From Terriglobia bacterium (GTDB lineage: Bacteria; Acidobacteriota; Terriglobia; 20CM-2-55-15): a stretch of 64,000 nt of DNA. Positions 138 through 62,284 of the stretch are shown one piece after another. The notes below the pieces were generated by a model, which did no database searches, had not been told where the DNA came from, and saw only the letters and a list, made by a program, of their open reading frames with translations. The stretch is from contig CBDAPB010000026.1 in NCBI GenBank assembly GCA_965198265.1, positions 61,614 to 125,613 on the forward strand, in the 5' to 3' direction. The position numbers and the translations under genes are program-made. The stretch's first letter is position 1, and every line of letters starts with the position of its first letter.

Positions 138-1225
138 TTGCCGTGGCTATGAGTGGCGGCGTCGATTCATCGGCGGCCGCCGCGTTGCTGAAGGCACAGG
201 GACATGACATCGTCGGGTTGTCGATGCAACTTTGGAATCAGCGGCGCAAACTCGGCGCTGACGCCGACGGCGACGCGGAAGTTCGCCGCACGGGACGTTG
301 CTGTTCGATCGATGACGTCTGGGATGCCCGGCGGGTAGCCAGCCACATCGGCTTTCCGTTCTATGTCCTGAACCTCGAAGACAAATTCGAGCAAACCGTC
401 ATCGCGCCTTTTGTCAGCTCATACTTGAATGGCGAGACTCCGAGCCCATGCGTTCTTTGCAACAACTACGTCAAGTTCCATCACCTGATGGACAAGGCAG
501 AACAAATCGGCGCCGACCGCGTGGCCACGGGTCACTACGCCCGAGTCCGGTTTGACGAAGCACTCGGGCGGTGGCTCTTGCTTCGCGGATGCGATGGTGG
601 GAAAGACCAATCGTATTTCCTGTTCGGCCTGACACAGGCCCAGCTGTCGAAGACAGTCTTTCCGCTCGGTGAGCTGACGAAGGCTGAGGTGCGGGAGATC
701 GCCCGGAACGCGGGCCTGCCGACCTACAACAAGCCGGAGTCGCAGGAAATCTGCTTTGTCCAGGGCCGGTCCTATGCGGATTTCGTGGAGCAGTACTCCG
801 AGACGACGTCAGATGATCGAGGGGAGATCGTGAACCTGGCGGGAGACGTCGTCGGATCTCATTCGGGCATTCACCGCTATACGGTCGGGCAAAGGAAGGG
901 TCTGATAGCAACAGGGAAGCCGCAATATGTCGTCCGTATCGAGCCGGCGTCGAACCGGGTCGTCGTCGGAGACAATGCGGATACCGCCGGACAGCGCTTT
1001 GCCGTACGGGATGCGAATTGGATCGCGATCGAGCGGCCCTCCGACCCGATCCGCTGCAGCATCCAGATCCGGAACCGGTTCGAGCCGCAGGCCGGCAGCG
1101 TCTTTATCGAAGACGGAAGGACGATCGTCCGTTTCGACACCCCGCAACGTGCCGTCACTCCTGGCCAGGCCGCCGTCTTCTACTGGGACGACGTTGTGGT
1201 CGGCGGCGGGTGGATCACCCGGTAA
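134..1225 (+). CDS. mnmA: tRNA-specific 2-thiouridylase MnmA
   Basis: MIAVAMSGGVDSS PP-loop motif and overall MnmA/TrmU-like sequence. Start taken at the internal ATG of the 86..1225 ORF, which overlaps the upstream stop. Confidence 0.85.
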   Translation: MIAVAMSGGVDSSAAAALLKAQGHDIVGLSMQLWNQRRKLGADADGDAEVRRTGRCCSIDDVWDARRVASHIGFPFYVLNLEDKFEQTVIAPFVSSYLNGETPSPCVLCNNYVKFHHLMDKAEQIGADRVATGHYARVRFDEALGRWLLLRGCDGGKDQSYFLFGLTQAQLSKTVFPLGELTKAEVREIARNAGLPTYNKPESQEICFVQGRSYADFVEQYSETTSDDRGEIVNLAGDVVGSHSGIHRYTVGQRKGLIATGKPQYVVRIEPASNRVVVGDNADTAGQRFAVRDANWIAIERPSDPIRCSIQIRNRFEPQAGSVFIEDGRTIVRFDTPQRAVTPGQAAVFYWDDVVVGGGWITR

Positions 1226-3414: not shown

Positions 3415-5803
3415 CGCACTGATCGTGGGCATCGTCGCTTCACCCTACCTGGATCCGTTCTTCGTTTGGGTGACCCTGATTCCGACCCTGCTGCTCTCCC
3501 TCCTCCGTCCCAAATGCCTGTTGCTCGCCCTCTGTTTAATGGGAGCCGGCCTTCGCGCAAACCAGGAAGTCCGGCCTCCGGTAATCTTAGATGACGGATA
3601 CGCGCGGCGGGTCGTCGCCGTGCTGGAAGGACCGCCCGAATGGAGGGATCCCGGTTACCACTTCGATGTCGACATCCGGACGCTCGACGGACAACCATGG
3701 CGCGGCCGGGCCCGGCTCTCCTTTTTCCCGCACGACGACAAGCTGGACAAGCTGTTCCGCAACCTGGGGTTGGGAACCGGAGATCGCGTCGAAGTCCTGA
3801 CCCGCCTTCGCCCGCCACGCTCCTACCGCAACCCTGGCGTGTTCGACTACAGACGCTACCTGGCCCGTCAGGGAATATTCTGGGCTGGTTCGATCCGAAA
3901 CCCGCGATTGATTCAGGTCCTCAACGGATCCTGGCATGGTGAGGACAGACTTCGGAAGTCGGTCACCGAACGCATCGGCCGGTTCTTCGAGGCTGACGAA
4001 ACAATCCGGGGTCTGGTACTGGGCATGGTTCTGGGACAGCGCCGGAGACTTCCGGCCGATGACGTTCGCCGGTTCCAGGCGGCCGGCCTGATTCACCTCC
4101 TCGTCGTGTCGGGCTTCAACCTCGCGGTCGTGGCCGCAACCGCCCTGTGGCTCGGGCGGCGTCTTCGGTTCGGACGGTTCCAGAGAGCCGGACGATATCT
4201 CTTCGCGCTCGTCGCGATCCTGACCTACGCCGCTCTGGTCGATGGCCAGAGTCCCGTCGTGCGGGCAACGCTGATGGCATCGATCCTGATTCTAGGAAAG
4301 CTGCTGGACCGCGGTTACACGGTCGGCAACGCGCTGGCGGCGAGCGCAATCCTGATTCTGATAGCGGACCCGTCGGCGCTCGAGGATTCCAGCTTCCAGC
4401 TTACATTCGCGGCGGTGCTGGCCATTCAAGTCCTGGGATCGCCGCTGATTCGGTGGTGTCTCGGGTGGCTTCGGCTAGCTTTGCGGGATTTCTCCAGGAC
4501 AGAGCCGGACATGGTGCTGCCGTCTGACGTTGCCGATTGGCGCGTGTCAAGACGCCTCCGCTGTGAGCTCGGCGGATGGCCGCACAGGACGATCACACTA
4601 CCGTGGACGATCCTCACCGCGTTCGCTGAAACGGCCCTCGTCACGCTGTGCGTACAACTGGTTCTCACCGGGTTCATGGTCGAATCTTTTCACCTGCTCT
4701 CCCCCGTCACGGTCCCGCTCAACGTGGTGGGCGCGGCCGTCGCGGCCATCATCACACCGCTGGGCCTGCTCCTGATCCTCCTGCCCCACTTCGCGGGTCT
4801 TATCGTAGCCAGACTCATGTCTGCCCTGCTCCATTTCCTGATCCTGTCGGTCGATCTGGGCCTGCGAGTCCCGGGTGCCAGTTTTCGGGTGCCGTCACCG
4901 CCCGGCGAGGTCTGGGCAATTTACGCCCTGACCGTTCTCGCGTTCATGTTCTCGATTCGCCGACGCTCGCCCCGTGCGGCGCTGTTGAGCCTGGCAGCCG
5001 CCTACACTCTGCAGGCTTTGATCGTCATCGCGGATTTCGACCCGGTTCCGCCGCGACACACTACCGTGACCTTCTTGGATGTCGGCCAGGGGGATTCGAG
5101 TCTGGTCGAACTCACCGACGGCACGCGCGTTCTCATCGACGCGGGGGGTTCCGCCACGGCACGCTACCGGTCGGCTGACGGCCAGGGGACGTTTTCTGTA
5201 GGAGAAGACGTCCTGACGCCCTACCTCTTCTCGCGCGGCATCCGCCATCTAGACGTCGTCGCGCTGACACACGCCCACCACGATCACATGGGCGGTCTGT
5301 TCGATCTGATCCGGAATTTCCGGATTGGTGAGATCTGGCTCGGTCGGAACCCCATGACGGTGCGCTACCGCGAGTTGTTGCAGGAGGCATATGAGCACCA
5401 GATTCCCATCCGCTGGCTTCGGGCGGACGATCGAATCAAAGCTTTCGAAGTGTTGAACCCACCGCGGGACTGGAAAGCGGCCGGCAAGGTAAAGAATGAC
5501 GACTCGCTCGTCTTACTCTTGAGAACCGAGGACGGGTCTGCGTTCTTGACCGGGGATCTCGAACGTTCCATTCCGGCACCGGATCTGGTGGACGTGCTGA
5601 AAGTCCCGCACCACGGCAGCAAGAACACAAGCCTCAAGGTTCGTGCGCTAATCCCAGTGATTTCCGTCGGAGCGAACAACCCGTTCAGACACCCCCACCC
5701 GACCAAGCTGCCGGCCCTCCGCACCGACATCCTGGGAGCCATCCAGGTCGTGCTGACCCCGGACGGCCCGGTGGTGTCGTTCCCTGGGCTGAAGGAAAAA
5801 TAA
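3350..5803 (+). CDS. comEC: DNA internalization competence protein ComEC/Rec2 with metallo-beta-lactamase domain
   Basis: Multi-TM N-terminal region, DUF4131-like segment, and a C-terminal MBL domain (HAHHDHMGG, VLKVPHHGS). Start uncertain. Confidence 0.85.
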   Translation: MCAQHLASTWSTEFLLPRRLLAALIVGIVASPYLDPFFVWVTLIPTLLLSLLRPKCLLLALCLMGAGLRANQEVRPPVILDDGYARRVVAVLEGPPEWRDPGYHFDVDIRTLDGQPWRGRARLSFFPHDDKLDKLFRNLGLGTGDRVEVLTRLRPPRSYRNPGVFDYRRYLARQGIFWAGSIRNPRLIQVLNGSWHGEDRLRKSVTERIGRFFEADETIRGLVLGMVLGQRRRLPADDVRRFQAAGLIHLLVVSGFNLAVVAATALWLGRRLRFGRFQRAGRYLFALVAILTYAALVDGQSPVVRATLMASILILGKLLDRGYTVGNALAASAILILIADPSALEDSSFQLTFAAVLAIQVLGSPLIRWCLGWLRLALRDFSRTEPDMVLPSDVADWRVSRRLRCELGGWPHRTITLPWTILTAFAETALVTLCVQLVLTGFMVESFHLLSPVTVPLNVVGAAVAAIITPLGLLLILLPHFAGLIVARLMSALLHFLILSVDLGLRVPGASFRVPSPPGEVWAIYALTVLAFMFSIRRRSPRAALLSLAAAYTLQALIVIADFDPVPPRHTTVTFLDVGQGDSSLVELTDGTRVLIDAGGSATARYRSADGQGTFSVGEDVLTPYLFSRGIRHLDVVALTHAHHDHMGGLFDLIRNFRIGEIWLGRNPMTVRYRELLQEAYEHQIPIRWLRADDRIKAFEVLNPPRDWKAAGKVKNDDSLVLLLRTEDGSAFLTGDLERSIPAPDLVDVLKVPHHGSKNTSLKVRALIPVISVGANNPFRHPHPTKLPALRTDILGAIQVVLTPDGPVVSFPGLKEK

Positions 5804-14726: not shown

Positions 14727-16343
14727 CTAGTCTTCCCGGAGCTCCCGCCACGCTTCGGGCAGGAACCCGATGATGTCGGTGGCGACGAGGGATTCTTCCC
14801 CGAGTTCCGAGGCGGCGATGTCCCCGGCCAGTCCGTGCAGGTAGACGGCGAGGCAGAGACGCTCTTCGAAACCACCCAAATGCGGCTGACCCAGGATGCC
14901 GGCGATCATTCCGGTCAGGATGTCTCCGCTTCCGGCTGTCGCCATGCCGGCATTTCCGGTCGGGTTTACGAAGGCGGTTCCGTCCGGACACGCGATGACA
15001 CTGCGGAAACCCTTCAGAACGACGTAGACGTCATGTTCACGGGCAAAGTCACGGGCCACTTCCAGCCGATTCCGACTGATGTAAGCGACATCCCTCCCGT
15101 TCAGCCGAGCCATTTCTCCGGGGTGGGGGGTGACGATGACGCCACTCTCAGTCCCGCGCAGCTCGGCTCCGTGCCCCTCGAAGGCGTTCAATCCGTCGGC
15201 ATCCAGAACAACGGGGACTGAAAGACGACTGAGCAGGCCCCGAACCAGTTCAGCCGTCTCCGGATGTCGGCTGATTCCTGGCCCGAGCGCCACGATCGAC
15301 TTTCCGGTGACCACCGTCTCCAGCCGCCCATCATCGAGCACAGCCCGGGAGAGGGTCCCTGCATCTGTCTCCGGAAGCGGCTCGGTCATCACCTCCGCCA
15401 TGTGTCCTGCTATCGTCGGAAGCACGCCCTCGGGGCCGGCAACGGTCACCAGCCCGGAGCCGGACTGAAGCGCCGCCTGTCCGGCCATCGCTGCCGCTCC
15501 AGCTTTGCCCCGAGACCCGCCTATGACCAGAACCTTGCCATAATCACCTTTGTTCGTGTCCTGATCCCTGGTGTAGGCGGCGTCGGGAAAACTGTCGGGC
15601 AGGAGCAGGTTGACGTTCAGGCTTGGATCGTCGAAGAGCTCGCGCGGGTTCCCGATGTCGGCGATCACGACCTCACCGGCCATCTCATGAGCCGGGGGAA
15701 ACACCAGGCAGAATTTTGGGGCCGACAACGTCACGGTCAAGTCTGCATCGACGGCGGGACCGGCAAGATCCGCGCTGTCGGCGGCGCATCCGGAAGGCAG
15801 GTCGATCGACGCAATCATCGCTTCCGGGAAGTCGTCCCTCATCGATTCAACGACGGTCCGCAACAACCCCTCGATGGGCTTGGACAGGCCTGTACCCAGT
15901 AGTGCATCCACGACGATGTCCGAGTCGATGATTTCTAGACGTTCCCGATTCCATTCGTCCTGGTTCTGGATGTGGACTGGCGGGTACCCGATCGCAGACA
16001 GTATCTCCAGATTCGTCTTAGCGTCACCGGTGACCTCGGAGGGCGAAGCGAACAGGAAGACCGCAGGGAAACATCCCCGCTGCATCAACTGCCTGGCAAC
16101 GACAAATCCGTCGCCGCCGTTGTTCCCTTTACCGCAAAGAATGGCCACCGACCGGGTCTCGAGCTCTTCCACGCGCGCGTCGATGGCCTCGACGACACGC
16201 ATACCTGCGTTTTCCATCAGAATGCTGCCGGCAATGCCGAACTTCTCAGTCGATATGCGGTCGATCTCGCGGATCTCGGCGGAAGTGAGGATCTTCGTCA
16301 AGGGAAGGCTACCTGAAAACGAAAAAGGACGCAGAGCCCACAT
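14727..16343 (-). CDS. nnr: bifunctional NAD(P)H-hydrate repair enzyme Nnr (epimerase + ADP-dependent dehydratase)
   Basis: YjeF N-terminal motif (GKGNNGGDGFVVARQL) and C-terminal carbohydrate-kinase fold (VLVIGGSRGKAGAAAMAG). Typical neighbour of tsaE. Confidence 0.85.
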   Translation of the reverse strand: MWALRPFSFSGSLPLTKILTSAEIREIDRISTEKFGIAGSILMENAGMRVVEAIDARVEELETRSVAILCGKGNNGGDGFVVARQLMQRGCFPAVFLFASPSEVTGDAKTNLEILSAIGYPPVHIQNQDEWNRERLEIIDSDIVVDALLGTGLSKPIEGLLRTVVESMRDDFPEAMIASIDLPSGCAADSADLAGPAVDADLTVTLSAPKFCLVFPPAHEMAGEVVIADIGNPRELFDDPSLNVNLLLPDSFPDAAYTRDQDTNKGDYGKVLVIGGSRGKAGAAAMAGQAALQSGSGLVTVAGPEGVLPTIAGHMAEVMTEPLPETDAGTLSRAVLDDGRLETVVTGKSIVALGPGISRHPETAELVRGLLSRLSVPVVLDADGLNAFEGHGAELRGTESGVIVTPHPGEMARLNGRDVAYISRNRLEVARDFAREHDVYVVLKGFRSVIACPDGTAFVNPTGNAGMATAGSGDILTGMIAGILGQPHLGGFEERLCLAVYLHGLAGDIAASELGEESLVATDIIGFLPEAWRELRED

Positions 16344-16374
16344 TGGGCCTGCGTCCTTGATTGCATCGACTGGA

Positions 16375-16932
16375 TCAGTTGTCCGAGAGCAGCGCGCTCA
16401 AGTCGGTCAACAGCTTGTCGACCGGGATCAAACCACCCGTCACGTTCTTCCAGATCAAAGTTCCTTCCTCATCGATCAGGAAGTAGTAGCGGTTGGCAAC
16501 CCTGACAGCAAGGTTGTCCCGGATTGCGCCATACATGGCAGAGACCTTCAAATCCGGATCACTCAGGAAACGGTTCTTGGCTCCAACCTTGTTCTTGAAC
16601 TCGTTCTGCGATGGGGCAAGGTCTCTGGAAACTCCGACGATCTCGATGCCCAGTTCCAGAAACTCGTCATATCTCTCACCGAACTCGGTGAACTCTCGCG
16701 TTCAGCCGCCGGTGAAGTCGGCCGGGTAGAACGCGAGCAGGACTTTACTGCGACCCGAGAAATCCTTGAGTCCAATCGTCTCTTGTCCGGCGATTCCGGC
16801 TGGACTCTCGAAATCGGGGGCCTTCTCTCCTACCGTCGGGGTGTTGTCGGCACCGGGTGCGGACAACTGGCTGAAGGCCATCGGGGCCATCACCAATGCC
16901 ACGATCGGAAGGAGCACGGCAATCCTCTTCAT
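16375..16932 (-). CDS. secreted BCP/PrxQ-type peroxiredoxin with in-frame TGA (candidate selenocysteine) at the catalytic position
   Basis: Signal peptide MKRIAVLLPIVALVMAPMAFS. The protein reads ...KVLLAFYPADFTGG-[TGA at 16702-16704]-TREFTEFGERYDEFLELGIEIVGVSRD...YFLIDEEGTLIWKNV... and stays in frame to the TGA at 16375-16377. The TGA aligns with the Cys of the FYPxDFTPGCT motif. Confidence 0.6.
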
Positions 16933-17144
16933 CTCTGTCGTCCTCCTCTTGAATCGGCGGCGAGGAGCTCGACGCCGCGTGAAAATGACCCGGCACTTCG
17001 GTCTCTCGGACCTGCCGGACCCGGAATGAGAACCCGTAGATGATATGCTAAGATTTCCGTCTTATGCAAGGTTTCGCACCAGCGAAGTCTTGAGCTGTCA
17101 ATAATTAAGGCCGATTACGGGCCCGACCCCCCGTTCTAGATCGA

Positions 17145-23556: not shown

Positions 23557-23634
23557 GTCCAAGGTCCGAGGTCCTGTCATGCGATCGGCGACATTGGACC
23601 TTGGACTTTGGACTTTGGACGTCGGACTTGGACT
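23557..23634. repeat. TTGGACC/GGTCCAA heptamer-based palindromic element (copy 2)
   Basis: gtccaaggtccgaggtcc ... ttggaccttggactttggactttggacgtcggacttggac. Confidence 0.7.
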
Positions 23635-23649
23635 GATATGATCATCCCG

Positions 23650-23795
23650 AACTTCGGATGAGGGAAAGCGGTGAGATTCCGCTGCTGCCCCGCAACTGTA
23701 AGACGACTCTTCCCAGCTACAGCCACTGCCAGCCACGCTGGCGGGAAGGCGCCCGCGAAACCGCTGTCGTCAAGCCAGGACACCTCCCGGAGGAG
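23650..23795 (+). promoter_or_regulatory. cobalamin (B12) riboswitch
   Basis: agggaaagcGGTGAgattCCgctGCTGCCCCGCAACTGTAAg ... aGCCACTGccagcc ... GGGAAGGCgcc ... gtcaaGCCAGGAcACCTcc matches the conserved cores of the B12 element. It lies in the 5' UTR of a TonB-dependent receptor. Confidence 0.75.
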
Positions 23796-23819
23796 ATTAC
23801 CTTTCGAGGGAGAGGGACC

Positions 23820-27139: not shown

Positions 27140-28564
27140 TCAGTCTAGGTCAGCGGCCACTGACTGGATCAACTTCCATGCGGCGCGGACGTGTCTCTCT
27201 TCGGTACGGAGGTTCCCGACCGTGAAACGGATGGTCAGCCGATCGTCGAGTTTCGTGTGGGACAGGAAAGCCTTACCGGAGGCGTTCACCCGATCGAGCA
27301 GCACCTGGTTCTCTTCGTCTGATCCCTCGAGTCGAAAGCAGACTGTGCTGAACGGCGCCGGAGCCATCAATCCGAAGTTCGGGCTCTCTTCGATCCAGGA
27401 AGCAAACATCTGGCTGAGACGGATGTGCTCGCGAAGCCTTTCGCGGATGCCGTCCACGCCAAAATACCGGATGACCATCCAGAATTTCAGCGCCCGGAAC
27501 CGGCGTCCGAGCTGGATCCCGTAATCCATGTAGTTGGTGACGCTGTCGTCCTCGGCCGTTTTCAGGTATTCCGGCGTCATGCTGAATGCCTGTTTGAGTA
27601 CTTCGGGACGGCGGCAATAGAACGCGCTGAAATCAATCGGGGTGAACATCCACTTATGAGGATTCACCACGAGCGAATCGGCACGTTCACAACCGTCGAG
27701 AACGTGTCGCAGCTCGGGCAGGATCGCCGCCGATCCCGCATATGCCGCGTCGACGTGCAGCCACAGCCCGTGACGTTCGCAAACCCTTGCGACTTCATCC
27801 ACCGGATCGATGCTCGTCGTCGATGTCGTGCCGATGGTCGCCGAGACACAGAACGGTCTCCACCCATCCTGCAAGTCTCGCTCGATCGCTGCTTCCAGAT
27901 CGGCCACGTCCAGGCAAAAACCCTTGTCCACACCGACTTTGACGACTCCCCGGCGGCCGAGCCCGATCGCCAGCGCTGCTTTTTCCACCGAGGAGTGCGC
28001 ATGCTCCGATGTATAGAGACGCAGTCTGGGTGCTCCGGGACCAGCAATTCCTTCTTCGCTGACGTCTCGCTCTCCGATCGCCTGCCTTGCCGCTGCAAAT
28101 GCGTGGAATGTGGAAATCGAAGCTGTATCGTAGACGACGCCCATGAAGTCTTCCGGAAGTCCCAGCATCTGGCGGAGCCAATCCAGAACAAGCTCCTCGA
28201 GTTCCGTCGCCGAAGGCGAGGTCTTCCACAGCATGGCGTTCACGTTGAATGCCGCCGTGAGGAGTTCGCCCAGTATTCCGGGACCAGACCCTGTTATCGC
28301 AAAGTAGGCAAAGAAGTCCGGATGATTCCAATGGGTTATCCCGGGAACGATGACGCGCTCCAGATCTGCAAAGATCGTCTCCATATCCTCTCCCGCGTCC
28401 GGCGGTGAAGCTGGCAACTGGTCGCGGATCGCCCCCGGTTCAACCTGTGCTAGAACCGGATACTTCTCTGGATCGGCCAGGTAGTCCGCAATCCAATCGA
28501 TCGCGTAGTGTCCCCAGCGACGAAAATCTTCCGGGCTCATATCCGACGGAACTGGATCACTCAT
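27140..28564 (-). CDS. PLP-dependent aromatic-L-amino-acid/tyrosine decarboxylase (group II decarboxylase)
   Basis: DDC-family N-terminal pattern (HWNHPDFFAYF) and PLP-lysine region (NPHKWMFTPIDFSAFY). Start trimmed to MSDPVPS. Confidence 0.85.
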   Translation of the reverse strand: MSDPVPSDMSPEDFRRWGHYAIDWIADYLADPEKYPVLAQVEPGAIRDQLPASPPDAGEDMETIFADLERVIVPGITHWNHPDFFAYFAITGSGPGILGELLTAAFNVNAMLWKTSPSATELEELVLDWLRQMLGLPEDFMGVVYDTASISTFHAFAAARQAIGERDVSEEGIAGPGAPRLRLYTSEHAHSSVEKAALAIGLGRRGVVKVGVDKGFCLDVADLEAAIERDLQDGWRPFCVSATIGTTSTTSIDPVDEVARVCERHGLWLHVDAAYAGSAAILPELRHVLDGCERADSLVVNPHKWMFTPIDFSAFYCRRPEVLKQAFSMTPEYLKTAEDDSVTNYMDYGIQLGRRFRALKFWMVIRYFGVDGIRERLREHIRLSQMFASWIEESPNFGLMAPAPFSTVCFRLEGSDEENQVLLDRVNASGKAFLSHTKLDDRLTIRFTVGNLRTEERHVRAAWKLIQSVAADLD

Positions 28565-28759
28565 GATTACTTCCTCTCGACTGCGATGATCTCGCGTGAG
28601 TCGCGAAAACACATACCACCTTCGAAGTACTGATGGAAGGGCTTCCCATCTCTTCCACGGGCGGCAACGAAGGTCTTCCCCTCTGGCAGGCGAGACGTAT
28701 CGCGCCTTGACGGTCCACGACCCAAACCCGTAAAATGTTATTCATACGCGGCAGGTTAT

Positions 28760-43680: not shown

Positions 43681-43707
43681 TACTGACTACTGGCTACTGA
43701 CTACTGG
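43681..43707. repeat. GACTACT heptamer array (solo arm)
   Basis: tactgactactggctactgactactgg. Confidence 0.6.
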
Positions 43708-43716
43708 GTCCCCCCC

Positions 43717-44682
43717 ATGTACCCCGAAGACCAGTTGATCGAGATGATCCGGAAAAGGTTCGCCGACACGTCGGTGCGTGTCGGGATCGGCGACACAACA
43801 GTGCGTGTCGGGATCGGCGACGATGCGGCCGTCATCGATCTCTCGTCGGGCTTTTCTACCCTGGTCTGTTCGGACCTGCTTGCCGAGAACACGCATTTCC
43901 GACGCGAAACCCATCCCCCGGACTCCGTGGGATTCAAGGCCGTGGCAGTCAACGTCAGCGACATCGGTGCGATGGGAGGAATCCCGGATTTTTGTCTGTT
44001 GTCGCTGGCCCTGCCCCGGGATCTGGAACGATCGTGGATCGACGCCTTCCTGGATGGCGTAGCAGCGGCGTGCCGTGAATTCGAGATAAGCCTTGTCGGG
44101 GGCGATTCTTCGGCTGCAGATCGAGTGTTCGTCGACGTGTCGGTCATCGGACATGTTCGGCGAGGCAGCGCGGTACTTCGATCCGGCGCTCGTTCGGGGA
44201 ACCACGTTTACATCACGGGCAGTCTTGGAGGGTCCGCAATGGGCCTCGAGTTGCTCGAGGAAGGTCATGGCTTCGAGTTGCTTGAGGAGGGTCGGAGGGA
44301 CCATCCAGCGATCCGCCGTAGTCTTTACCCGGAACCCCGACACCGGATCGGCTCAAGAGTCGCGGACCGGGCGACCGCGATGATCGACATCAGCGACGGG
44401 CTTTCCGCCGACCTCACACACATTCTGGAAGCTTCATCTGTCTCCGCGCGGATCACCAGCGAGTCGATTCCACTCCACCCCGGTGCGGAGGTTTCCCGAG
44501 CCCTGCACAGCGGTGAGGAGTACGAACTGATCGTGACGGCTGAAGATCTGCCCAGCGAGATCGACGGCGTACCGATAACATGCATCGGTCAAATCGTGCC
44601 TTCGGGCGAGAAGCCGCAGATTCTGCTGATCGAAGGGCTGAGGGAACAGGTGCTGGATCCGAAGGGGTGGAAACACTTCTGA
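43717..44682 (+). CDS. thiL: thiamine-monophosphate kinase
   Basis: AIR-synthase-related fold (GIGDDAAVIDL...ENTHF...AVAVNVSDIGAMGG). Contains two in-frame 27 bp tandem duplications. Confidence 0.8.
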   Translation: MYPEDQLIEMIRKRFADTSVRVGIGDTTVRVGIGDDAAVIDLSSGFSTLVCSDLLAENTHFRRETHPPDSVGFKAVAVNVSDIGAMGGIPDFCLLSLALPRDLERSWIDAFLDGVAAACREFEISLVGGDSSAADRVFVDVSVIGHVRRGSAVLRSGARSGNHVYITGSLGGSAMGLELLEEGHGFELLEEGRRDHPAIRRSLYPEPRHRIGSRVADRATAMIDISDGLSADLTHILEASSVSARITSESIPLHPGAEVSRALHSGEEYELIVTAEDLPSEIDGVPITCIGQIVPSGEKPQILLIEGLREQVLDPKGWKHF

Positions 44683-50638: not shown

Positions 50639-51553
50639 ATGAAATCCTCGATACTGGTTGTCGGTTCTGTGGCGCTGGATTCGGTGAAGACACCCTTCGG
50701 CGAAGTGGACGACGCGCTGGGCGGATCGGCAACCTATTTTTCTGTAGCCGCCAGCTTCTTCTCCCCGGTCCGAGTCGTCGCGGTCGTCGGAGATGATTTC
50801 AGCGATGACCACTCCGCGATCTTCAAGCGCCATAACATCGACACCGACGGTCTGGTGCGGGCCGACGGGCGAACCTTCCGCTGGAAGGGGGAGTACAGCT
50901 ACGATCTCAACGAGGCGCGAACACTCGACACACAACTCAACGTCTTCGAGGCGTTCAAACCTGAGATACCAAAATCCTACAGGGGTTCGGAGTACGTCTT
51001 TCTGGGCAACATCGACCCCGAACTCCAATCCCAGGTTCTGGAACAAATCGAACACCCGAAAGTTGTCGCCTGCGACACGATGAATTTCTGGATTGACGGC
51101 AAGCTGGACGAACTGAAGCGCACTCTCGGCAAGGTCGACATCCTCATCATCAATGACGGAGAGGCTCGTATGCTCGCCGGGGAGGCCAACCTCGTGCGGG
51201 CGGCGGGTAAGATAATGGCAATGGGCCCGAAAATCCTGATCGTGAAACGCGGGGAGTACGGAGTGCTGATGTTTAACGAAGGTTCGGTCTTCGGAGCGCC
51301 GGCCTTCCCGCTGGAGGAAGTCTACGATCCGACCGGGGCGGGAGATTCATTCGCTGGAGGGTTCATAGGCTATCTCGCCGAGTCCGGAGAACTGACCGAC
51401 GAGGTGTTCCGCCGATCGATCATATTCGGCTCGGTTATGGCTTCGTTCAACGTGGAACAGTTCAGTCTCGACGGTCTATCCAAGCTGACGCGCACCGACA
51501 TCGATTCGCGCTTCAGACAGTTCAAGAAGCTGACACACTTCGAAACACTCTAG
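50639..51553 (+). CDS. PfkB family carbohydrate kinase
   Basis: N-terminal GG motif region and C-terminal DPTGAGDSFAGGF. The TAG stop is the first three bases of the MITE-B terminus. Confidence 0.8.
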   Translation: MKSSILVVGSVALDSVKTPFGEVDDALGGSATYFSVAASFFSPVRVVAVVGDDFSDDHSAIFKRHNIDTDGLVRADGRTFRWKGEYSYDLNEARTLDTQLNVFEAFKPEIPKSYRGSEYVFLGNIDPELQSQVLEQIEHPKVVACDTMNFWIDGKLDELKRTLGKVDILIINDGEARMLAGEANLVRAAGKIMAMGPKILIVKRGEYGVLMFNEGSVFGAPAFPLEEVYDPTGAGDSFAGGFIGYLAESGELTDEVFRRSIIFGSVMASFNVEQFSLDGLSKLTRTDIDSRFRQFKKLTHFETL

Positions 51554-51827: not shown

Positions 51828-52649
51828 ATGATCCCTTTCGTAAAGACAAACGCGCTGGGCAACGACTTCATCCTGATCGCGGACACCGACGTGACCGGCG
51901 ACGCTCCCAAGCTGGCGACTCGGATATGCGATCGCCACTTCGGCGTCGGCGCAGACGGGCTGATCGTATGGAAGCCGGGCAACGAAGGCGCTGAGATTCG
52001 GATCTTCAACATGGACGGCAGCGAGGCGGAGTGCTCCGGGAACGGCCTGCGATGCGTAGCAGCCTACCTGATGGACCTGGAGCGGTTCGACAGCGAGCAG
52101 ATCGAACTCAGGACGGTTTCAGGCAGTTACCCGATTCGACGGGTCGGCGCAGGGTTCGAAACGGCCATGGGCGAACCCGGGTTGAAGCCCGAGGAGATAC
52201 CGTTCACGGACGCAGATGGGCTCGAATGCATCGTCGATTACGCCCTGGAGGTCGACGGCAGCCCGGTTCGCATCACTGCGTGCTCGACGGGCAATCCACA
52301 CTGTTCCCTGTTTGTCGACTCGATCGAAGCCGGCATGATCGAGAACCTGGGGCCGAAGCTGGAGAATCATCCGGCCTTCCCGAACCGGACGAACGTGGAG
52401 TTCGTGCACGTACGAAACCGGCGTGAAATCGAAGTCGCGTTCTGGGAACGGGGGGTCGGTCTGACTTTCGCATCCGGAACAGGATCGTGCGGCGCGACCG
52501 TGGCCTCGATCTTGAACGGCAGGACCGAACGGCAGGTCCGGGTCCACACCCGAGCAGGAAAGCTCGACGTGGAGTGGGCCGAAGACGGCAAACTGAAGCT
52601 CACTTCGACGGCGGAAGTCGTCGCCGAAGGCCGGTACATGGATTCCTGA
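51828..52649 (+). CDS. dapF: diaminopimelate epimerase
   Basis: NALGNDF..., SGNGLRC, and GNPHC catalytic cysteine motifs. Confidence 0.9.
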   Translation: MIPFVKTNALGNDFILIADTDVTGDAPKLATRICDRHFGVGADGLIVWKPGNEGAEIRIFNMDGSEAECSGNGLRCVAAYLMDLERFDSEQIELRTVSGSYPIRRVGAGFETAMGEPGLKPEEIPFTDADGLECIVDYALEVDGSPVRITACSTGNPHCSLFVDSIEAGMIENLGPKLENHPAFPNRTNVEFVHVRNRREIEVAFWERGVGLTFASGTGSCGATVASILNGRTERQVRVHTRAGKLDVEWAEDGKLKLTSTAEVVAEGRYMDS

Positions 52650-60754: not shown

Positions 60755-62284
60755 ATGCTCTTCAAGACCCGTACCGGTGCGGTCTATGGCATCGAAGCCC
60801 GTCCGGTCGAGGTGGAAGTCAATATCTCTTCCGGCGGAAACGGCGACTTCCAGATCGTCGGTCTCCCGGATTCCGCCATCCGGGAGTCCCGCCCGCGAAT
60901 CCGGGCGGCGGTGCGCAACTCCGGATTCGAGTTCCCTGTTCAATACATCACGATAAACCTGGCCCCGGCCAACCTCAGGAAGGAAGGATCCGCGTTCGAC
61001 CTTTCGATGGCCGTGGGCATACTGGGCGTCACGAGGTTGATTCACAACGACGTGTCCGATTGTTTGTTCATCGGCGAACTCTCCTTGGACGGGCGACTGC
61101 GACCCGTCCGGGGTGCGCTGTCGATGGCGATCCTCGCTCGAGACTCAGCTGTCGAGCGGCTGATCCTGCCGGAAGCCAACGCGAAGGAAGCCGCCGTAGT
61201 CGAGGGTGTTTCCGTCTACCCGGTGAGGACACTCGCCGAGGTCGTCGATCTCGTAAACGGGAACGGCCCCACTGCGCCCTTCCGAGTTTCGACCACCGAC
61301 CACCGCGTCCCCCCGCATCCGAGAGTCGAGGATTATCACGACGTCCGCGGACAACAACACGCCAGGCGGGCGATCGAGGTTGCCGTCGCCGGCGGACACA
61401 ACATCCTGATGATGGGCCCGCCCGGTTCCGGCAAGACGATGCTCGCCAGACGAATCCCGTCGGTGATCCCCCCGATGACATTTGAAGAGAGCCTGGAAAC
61501 GACGCGGATCCACTCCAGTGCCGGTTTGCTCCCCAACGGCAACGGCCTGGTGGAAGAACGGCCATTCCGGGCGCCGCATCACAGCGTTTCGGCGGCCGGC
61601 CTGATCGGAGGTGGATCGATCCCCCGCCCGGGCGAGGTGAGCCTGGCCCACAACGGCGTCCTGTTTCTGGACGAGCTGCCGGAATTCCCTCGCCATGTCC
61701 TCGAAGTGTTGCGCCAGCCCCTTGAAGACCAGAGCATCACGATCGCACGCACCCAGATGACGCTCTCGTTTCCATCGTCTTTCGTCCTCGTCGCGGCGAT
61801 GAACCCGTGTCCGTGCGGCTACGCGGGCGATCCACAGCGGGAGTGTCTGTGTTCTCCGGCCCAGATTCAGCGGTACATGTCCAGGATCTCCGGTCCGTTG
61901 CTGGACCGAATCGACATCCAGGTTGCGGTGCCCCGGGTTCAGTATCGTGAACTGACCGAGGCGGCGGCGGTCGAAAGTTCGACTTCCATTCGAGAACGAA
62001 TCGTTCGTGCTCGAGAAAGTCAGCGAGCCCGACTCGGGAACGACGGGGCACTGGTCAACGCGAGAATGTCTCCCGGCCAGGTGGAGCGACATTGCCGACT
62101 GGACCCAGAATGCGGCCGGCTTCTCGAGCGCGCGGTGAATCGGTTGGGCCTGTCGGCGAGAGGGTGGAATCGAGTGCTGAAAGTGTCGCGAACGATTGCC
62201 GACCTCGAAAGTGGCGCAGCGATCAAGATCAACCATGTAGCCGAAGCGATCCAGTACCGGAGTCTGGACCGGGATCCGCGGTAA
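60755..62284 (+). CDS. YifB/ComM family Mg-chelatase-like AAA+ ATPase
   Basis: Lon-protease-like N-terminal domain, Walker A (GPPGSGKTM), sensor motifs, and a C-terminal ChlI-like domain. Confidence 0.9.
   Translation: MLFKTRTGAVYGIEARPVEVEVNISSGGNGDFQIVGLPDSAIRESRPRIRAAVRNSGFEFPVQYITINLAPANLRKEGSAFDLSMAVGILGVTRLIHNDVSDCLFIGELSLDGRLRPVRGALSMAILARDSAVERLILPEANAKEAAVVEGVSVYPVRTLAEVVDLVNGNGPTAPFRVSTTDHRVPPHPRVEDYHDVRGQQHARRAIEVAVAGGHNILMMGPPGSGKTMLARRIPSVIPPMTFEESLETTRIHSSAGLLPNGNGLVEERPFRAPHHSVSAAGLIGGGSIPRPGEVSLAHNGVLFLDELPEFPRHVLEVLRQPLEDQSITIARTQMTLSFPSSFVLVAAMNPCPCGYAGDPQRECLCSPAQIQRYMSRISGPLLDRIDIQVAVPRVQYRELTEAAAVESSTSIRERIVRARESQRARLGNDGALVNARMSPGQVERHCRLDPECGRLLERAVNRLGLSARGWNRVLKVSRTIADLESGAAIKINHVAEAIQYRSLDRDPR

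Follow-up and report, generated by a model that had tools for sequence, protein, structure and literature searches.

Does the 76-residue open reading frame (ORF) at 16702..16932 represent a whole gene, or is the TGA that ends it read as an amino acid? The question arises on the minus strand of a 64,000-nucleotide stretch of contig CBDAPB010000026.1 from a Terriglobia bacterium (this whole stretch is referred to as the window), where the ORF list covers only the front half of a peroxiredoxin. Positions 16375-16932 form one frame of 185 codons, in which the sole internal stop is the TGA at 16702-16704, codon 77, and the terminal stop is a further TGA at 16375-16377. The frame reads MKRIAVLL...AFYPADFTGG*TREFTEFGERYDEF...LSALLSDN*, and the peptide spanning residue 77 is VLLAFYPADFTGG-X-TR, where X is the residue encoded by UGA. 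A preliminary description of the locus had taken the short ORF for the front half of a protein running in one frame to the TGA at 16375-16377, and both the translation and a Pfam match across the internal TGA agree with it. This is an intact and real peroxiredoxin gene, in which the codon for the catalytic cysteine is replaced by UGA and which gene finders split in two; public gene calls give a 76-residue “peroxiredoxin” fragment and a 53- or 104-residue fragment. Judging from its sequence and that of its homologues, the residue inserted at this UGA is very probably selenocysteine (Sec). The same gene is also found on contig ctg242587_6x_l of ENA assembly ERZ25072076. The coding features at the center of the question are as follows.

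16375..16932, minus strand: complete coding sequence of the putative selenocysteine peroxiredoxin (Sec-Prx), as indicated by the single frame, the Pfam match across the TGA, the conserved C-terminus, and the ratio of nonsynonymous to synonymous substitution rates (dN/dS).
16702..16704, minus strand: probable Sec codon, the UGA at codon 77 of the frame, which the alignment and 47 TGA-bearing homologues place at the peroxidatic residue of PxxxTxxC.
16711..16725, minus strand: active-site codons of the motif PxxxTxxU, with P70 at 16723-16725 and T74 at 16711-16713, from a 44-sequence alignment.
16489..16491, minus strand: codon of the conserved catalytic Arg148, in the motif NRYYFLID, invariant in the alignment.

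With C substituted for the internal stop, the translated frame matches the Pfam family AhpC-TSA (PF00578) over residues 34-161, that is, across the TGA (E=1e-28; 100.2 bits versus a cut-off of 26). In an alignment of 44 sequences including the window, the TGA column is an invariant cysteine among the 43 homologues, P70 and R148 do not vary either, and the conservation of T74 is 90% or more. Up to the TGA the protein reads P-A-D-F-T-G-G-[TGA], which is the PxxxTxxC motif of peroxiredoxins, so that the TGA indeed stands at the position of the peroxidatic cysteine, as had been proposed. The initial assignment to the BCP/PrxQ type held for the nearest relationship, the nearest solved structures by sequence being the BCP-type entries 5enu (E 1e-18) and 3drn (3e-17), but not for class membership: the protein scores 52.8 bits against a cut-off of 140 for the BCP model NF006960 and 48 bits against 260 for the PrxQ model NF053650. 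A resolving cysteine five residues past the peroxidatic residue is typical of BCPs, although not universal, and the mature protein has no cysteine at all, both in the window and in every intact member of the clade. The PrxU model NF040737 also fails (62.2 bits versus 270), and no NCBIfam model captures the Sec-Prx clade.

A protein search returned relatives of two types, full-length forms with cysteine and fragments that either start with (V/M)REFTEFG or end in ...AFYPADFTGG. The contigs that encode the fragments have a TGA at the same place, which identifies the fragments as genes split by the callers at the same TGA. Metagenome contigs were scanned with a DNA pattern fixed at the amino-acid level only, F-T-x-G-TGA-x-x-E-F-T-E-F, which permitted ACN, GAR, and TTN, with GGT lying outside the pattern. 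The scan yielded 58 loci, in which the frame past the TGA is open to the conserved C-terminus wherever the contig permits. Together with the window and four other loci (L001-L003 and L005), these gave 47 distinct sequences, on which the clade-wide counts that follow are based. TGA occupies the position of codon 77 in all 47. The preliminary description had suggested inspecting relatives for cysteine or TGA at this codon and for clearly degraded genes; the frame is intact on both sides of the TGA. The dN/dS ratio is 0.071 over 21 codons upstream of the TGA and 0.082 over codons +10 to +45 downstream of it, with synonymous sites saturated (dS >2). The low downstream ratio implies that the half after the TGA is translated and under selection equal to that on the upstream half.

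These data bear directly on the idea that UGA-77 is a true stop and that the locus is a pseudogene, an assembly or sequencing error, or a pair of separate polypeptides. Gene callers do give a 76-residue ORF plus a downstream ORF, and in three sequences the TGA is directly followed by GTG, where a second ORF can be called. However, the TGA is common to 47 distinct sequences from many samples, and the downstream dN/dS is 0.08. Most of the sequences have ACG after the TGA, which is not a start codon, without a ribosome-binding site, and a 76-residue product would end just before the catalytic residue and lack the catalytic arginine. We consider a true stop highly improbable. Reassignment of TGA throughout the genome to a sense codon, for example Trp or Gly, is less probable still; the in-frame TGA itself speaks for it and nothing beyond, whereas TGA is the commonest terminator among the 52 genes called in the window, closing 25 of them, the Sec-Prx gene included. 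Because TGA is so common as a terminator, the code is taken to be standard and the recoding site-specific. The pseudogene, error, two-polypeptide, and genome-wide reassignment readings are effectively refuted.

No full-length protein combining the cysteine with REFTEFG occurred among the word-matched hits of a search of 5.8 billion proteins. This search picks candidates via shared 5-residue words, and a Cys-REFTEFG protein would have ranked at the top; from its absence among the hits, the Sec-Prx clade appears to be TGA-only. Separately, one 4.7-kb contig (L100; Ga0137408_1422882) has two inverted Sec-Prx copies, at 4310-4344 (+) and 492-526 (-), one of them full of frameshifts, which looks like a chimeric or fold-back assembly and not like biology.

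The second line of evidence concerns the RNA just downstream of the UGA, where the preliminary description had pointed out a hairpin resembling a selenocysteine insertion sequence (SECIS).

16675..16692, minus strand: candidate SECIS-type hairpin with its core at 16677-16690 and the loop AGUU at 16682-16685, from the local fold and comparative data.

The hairpin, UCACCG-AGUU-CGGUGA at 16691-16676, has a local folding energy of -8.8 to -9.2 kcal/mol (z -2.2 to -3.5). Its conserved core is Y-ACCG[AGUU]CGGU-R (C-ACCG[AGUU]CGGU-G in the window), and in the window the stem extends to seven pairs. The local fold recovers the proposed element, but longer single-sequence folds of 55-71 nt do not: when a 55- or 71-nt stretch of the window is folded alone, the hairpin is not the minimum-energy structure, and the fold is no better than those of shuffled sequences. 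Folding one sequence is uninformative here and a hairpin from it is weak evidence; the reality of this one rests on comparative data. Codons +5 to +8 are ACC GAG TTC GGT in 47 of 47 sequences, despite dS >2 elsewhere; in the rest of the Sec-Prx genes, glycine codons are mainly GGC and no four-fold site is constant. The closing pair, formed by the third base of the Phe codon at +4 and the first base of codon +9, is UA in 31 sequences, CG in 15, and UG in one, with no mismatches. Codon +9 accordingly starts with A (N, I, or K) if its partner is U and with G (E, V, or A) if its partner is C. RNAalifold arrives independently at this stem of five pairs.

The stem begins 11 nt past the UGA, which is the spacing required by the minimal E. 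coli SECIS element, and the distance from UGA to loop is 16 nt. The published model of bacterial SECIS (bSECIS) elements specifies a stem of 4-16 bp, a loop of 3-9 nt in which one of the first two bases is G and the next is G or U, a UGA-to-loop distance of 16-37 nt, and a folding energy of -7.5 kcal/mol or lower (PMC13188914). The window hairpin falls within all of these limits (loop AGUU, stem of 5-7 bp, 16 nt, -8.8 to -9.2 kcal/mol), and the spacing and shape noted at the outset agree with the model.

The full-length Cys forms are ~50% identical to Sec-Prx and carry FTPGCTTEFTEAG. A scan of genome contigs that used Cys-containing peptide patterns yielded mostly Cys forms and was the source of two loci from one Solibacteraceae metagenome-assembled genome (MAG), which has both a Sec form (L005; CAZWGA010000001.1, AAFTAG-TGA-TREFTEFG) and a Cys form (L006; CAZWGA010000007.1, GAFTPGCTTEFTEAG). 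These two are paralogues and not alternative alleles. The Cys paralogue clade (P0001-P0026; L006-L009) is like Sec-Prx in its length, signal peptide, QLxAPGxDN mature N-terminus, and single redox residue, but has TGC for TGA, FTPGCTTEFTEAG for FT(A/G)GU(T/V)REFTEFG, and no hairpin. Four Cys paralogues vary synonymously at the hairpin codons (ACC/ACG/ACA and GAA/GAG) and, in place of the TTC GGT of the Sec forms, carry GCN GGN, which means that they cannot form the hairpin. The suspicion that a selenoprotein gene had been miscalled as a truncated ORF is upheld by the TGA in 47 homologues, the purifying selection on both sides of it, the hairpin with its invariant codons and compensatory closing pair, and the lack of the hairpin in the Cys paralogues.

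Several observations weigh against Sec insertion directed by this hairpin. Selenium in the protein is deduced from sequence. In the 64-kb window and ~10 kb beyond its low-coordinate end, there is no selA, selB, selD, or tRNA-Sec; over the window and all loci (749 kb), ARAGORN found no tRNA-Sec, and selA, selB, and selD were not found either. On a neighbor-joining tree, the U-A/C-G/U-G pattern of the closing pair amounts to only two changes, one double and one wobble; the frozen synonymous sites are stronger evidence than this thin covariation. The conserved stem is tiny (5 bp), and the bSECISearch limit of -7.5 kcal/mol is reached by seven of the 47 sequences when the local 20 nt are folded. 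When 40 nt are folded, 34 of the 47 reach it, often via other folds, and a competing helix wins the 40-nt fold in 28 of the 47. Separately, neither a lower stem conserved in the clade nor a bulged U was detected, and no Rfam family matches the hairpin region up to E 10, the only hits being two chance matches to snoRNAs.

In the competing helix (16681-16703, minus strand), CGG pairs with CCG, and GAAC, composed of the GA of the UGA and the following AC, pairs with the GUUC of the loop and 3' arm. It was rejected as a conserved element: it is pairable in 89% of cases across the 47 sequences and shows no covariation, and its pairing is explained by the Thr/Val/Ile codons. It might, for example, occlude the UGA until SelB binds.

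In a rival reading, UGA-77 is decoded as Cys, Ser, or another residue by a dedicated opal-suppressor tRNA. This could be, for example, an acidobacterial allo-tRNA or a tRNA-Cys(UCA) of the selC* type, and a SelB-like factor acting on the same hairpin might still deliver it. Precedents are the allo-tRNAs in Acidobacteria and the selC* tRNA-Cys in deltaproteobacteria (PMC5389517), and this idea also fits with selenium being deduced and with Sec machinery not being found within the window and the loci searched. However, that study reports no selC* tRNAs for Acidobacteria, and UGA-to-Cys recoding would bring no obvious gain, since Cys paralogues are already present in the same genome. TGA is moreover kept in 47 of 47 sequences, although a simple change from TGA to TGY would yield Cys. 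SelA and SelB also occur in the related genus Solibacter, where Solibacter usitatus has both of them as well as two Sec-FdhA proteins (supplement of PMC1794560). Taken together, we consider a suppressor tRNA improbable, if less so than a true stop, and Sec remains the preferred residue.

The closest peroxiredoxin relatives found in genomes are from Solibacteraceae, Acidobacteriota, Terriglobia, and Bryobacterales, and the nearest named relative of the Lon protease in the window is from an Acidobacteria MAG (74% identity). In assembly ERZ25072076, one contig of 4,556,585 bp (L144; ctg246054_14x_l) represents a related bacterium with a Lon protease 77% identical and the same NrdR-Hsp20-Lon-ThiL order, whereas contigs of 171 kb and 911 kb (L146 and L147) represent a very close relative, with Lon 96% identical and synteny over 22 kb. 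The 161-kb ENA contig ctg242587_6x_l would end near window position 51034, judging from the coordinates of the two pieces L004 and L143, so that the window is another copy or assembly of the region; an exact-sequence search with the window gene at 60755-62284, beyond that point, gave no match. The ~10 kb beyond window position 1 contain IscS/NifU, citrate synthase, an IS21 element, and NusG. The IS21-type element, with a Mu-transposase-C-like gene and an IstB ATPase, lies at 1365-3675 of L143, ~6-9 kb beyond window position 1 on ctg242587_6x_l, and is flanked by a gene without Pfam match, adjoining NusG, on one side and by a TPR gene and citrate synthase on the other.

Candidates for Sec-related genes within the window were examined and rejected. 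An AIRS-domain gene at 43717-44682, considered as selD, is thiL (TIGR01379, 288 bits); the TGA that precedes this gene is noncoding. A pyridoxal phosphate (PLP)-dependent decarboxylase at 27140-28612 (-), considered as SepSecS, has a weak match to it (5e-7) that reflects the shared fold-type I PLP architecture, the match to Pyridoxal_deC being at 1e-104. A crude list of open stretches joined by TGA was mostly noise; the candidate examined from it, a second TGA-interrupted gene at 52424, is accounted for by a DapF-like gene that occupies a different frame (51828-52649). The thiL gene itself has two in-frame 27-bp tandem duplications, at 43760-43821 and 44242-44293 (+), which encode VRVGIGDT/VRVGIGDD and LELLEEGHG/FELLEEGRR and may be genuine variants or artefacts of the assembly. 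A tandem repeat with a 14-bp unit, TACTGACTACTGGC, lies in 1.9 copies just ahead of the thiL start (43681-43707, +).

If Sec is inserted at codon 77, the gene would encode an exported peroxiredoxin of the AhpC/TSA family from an Acidobacteriota-like bacterium, with Sec in place of the peroxidatic cysteine. Two features at the start of the gene contribute to this model.

16941..16948, minus strand: ribosome-binding site GAGGAGGA, read from the sequence; a gap of 8 nt separates it from the ATG (16932-16930).
16870..16932, minus strand: Sec-translocon-type signal peptide, codons 1-21 (MKRIAVLLPIVALVMAPMAFS|QL), with a predicted cleavage site, from the N-terminal pattern of the family.

Nearly all complete members start with M-K/R-K/R, followed by ~15 hydrophobic residues, a small-x-small motif, and then the conserved QLxxPGxDNTP. 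The signal peptide named in the preliminary description is thus a family-wide pattern; by its sequence, the N-terminus is a Sec-translocon signal peptide, from which we infer export. The mature protein, of ~164 residues, is cysteine-free in the window and in every intact relative, which makes the UGA-encoded residue the only redox center and implies that its recycling needs an external reductant.

In the proposed mechanism, translation would start at the ATG at 16932, after the GGAGGA ribosome-binding site. At UGA-77, the hairpin Y-ACCG[AGUU]CGGU-R, 11 nt past the codon, would recruit SelB with Sec-tRNA(Sec), such that Sec would be inserted instead of translation being terminated. Translation would then run on to the TGA at 16375, and transcription would stop at a terminator just after it. 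The signal peptide would direct the protein to the periplasm, where the selenolate, placed by Pro70, Thr74, and Arg148, may reduce peroxides via a selenenic acid. With a Cys-free mature protein, an external reductant would be expected to recycle the Sec.

The gene is followed by a terminator of its own.

16315..16358, minus strand: intrinsic terminator, a G+C-rich hairpin of 14 pairs followed by UUUUUCGUUUUC, from the fold; it begins 17 nt past the stop codon.

The terminator folds at -27.3 kcal/mol (z -4.75), and none of 200 shuffled sequences was equally stable; a simple scan overlooked it because of a bulge in the hairpin. This strong terminator after the stop codon makes the Sec-Prx gene a separate transcription unit. 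The gene order aminotransferase, peroxiredoxin, nnr, tsaE, M16 peptidase is kept on contigs bearing split relatives, so that the location beside nnr/tsaE, pointed out in the preliminary description, is conserved as synteny. The functional link that was also suggested is unsupported, because the gene stops at its own strong terminator; the adjacency, though conserved, is no evidence of common function.

Elsewhere in the window, positions 23606-23805 (+) hold a cobalamin riboswitch (Rfam RF00174, 87.6 bits), with genes downstream of it to ~26842. The riboswitch precedes the gene of a TonB-dependent receptor and that of a periplasmic binding protein (Peripla_BP_2), likely a B12-uptake operon. The called start of the receptor, at 23658, falls inside the riboswitch, and the true start is probably further downstream.

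We tentatively suggest, with a little less than even confidence, that the TGA-bearing genes form a distinct, unannotated Acidobacteriota clade of exported, Cys-free “1-Sec” peroxiredoxins, with a minimal SECIS element that is frozen at the nucleotide level and has imprinted EFTEFG on the protein, where the Cys paralogues have EFTEAG. If so, few natural SECIS elements of bacteria would be as compact, and the protein would be a periplasmic selenoperoxidase. The clade is also a clean natural case of an RNA signal that constrains synonymous sites and even the choice of amino acid, and so short a hairpin may serve Sec-insertion engineering. The gene would imply a need for selenium in periplasmic peroxide defense, with a Cys paralogue kept alongside. 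As public calls split the gene and no NCBIfam model covers it, the selenoproteome of this phylum, which is widespread in soil and water, is likely under-counted.

Compared with known systems, the protein shares with BCP/PrxQ proteins (5enu, 3drn) the context FYP.D.T.GCT.E and a similar length, but it fails the models for these proteins, lacks a resolving cysteine five residues on, is predicted to be exported, and probably has Sec for Cys. Like bacterial SECIS elements of the E. coli fdhF type, the hairpin is a stem-loop within the coding sequence right after the UGA, with a small loop containing G and then U and with a distance of 16 nt, within the range of 16-37. It differs from them in that the clade has a conserved stem of 5 bp with a tetraloop, the lowest allowed spacing, and energies that are mostly weaker than -7.5 kcal/mol when the local hairpin alone is counted.

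The closest parallel is the Sec-Prx family itself (PF00578, TxxU), an established family; the preliminary description had mentioned Sec-containing Prx-like proteins in some bacterial selenoproteomes. Its founding member, PrxU of Eubacterium acidaminophilum, was established experimentally (Sohling et al. 2001, as cited in PMC13188914). The count of Sec-Prx genes stood at 12 in 2006 (PMC1794560) and at 91, in 78 genomes, in 2016 (PMC5029168), and the GOS metagenomes contributed 253 Sec-Prx, including FTGGU variants as well as members with hydrophobic N-termini (PMC2398784). The EFTEFG motif is absent from the accessible part of the 2006 and 2008 supplementary Sec-Prx sequence sets. The window clade and this family have in common the AhpC/TSA fold, the Sec position in PxxxTxxU, a SECIS element within the coding sequence just downstream, and Cys homologues that are far commoner. 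Unlike PrxU, the window clade has a signal peptide, a Cys-free mature protein, and the motif U-T/V-R-E-F-T-E-F-G, and the window protein scores 62 bits where 270 are called for. Our understanding of Sec decoding and of peroxiredoxins is unchanged by this comparison: the gene is a new, unannotated member or subclade of the long-known Sec-Prx family, and not a new kind.

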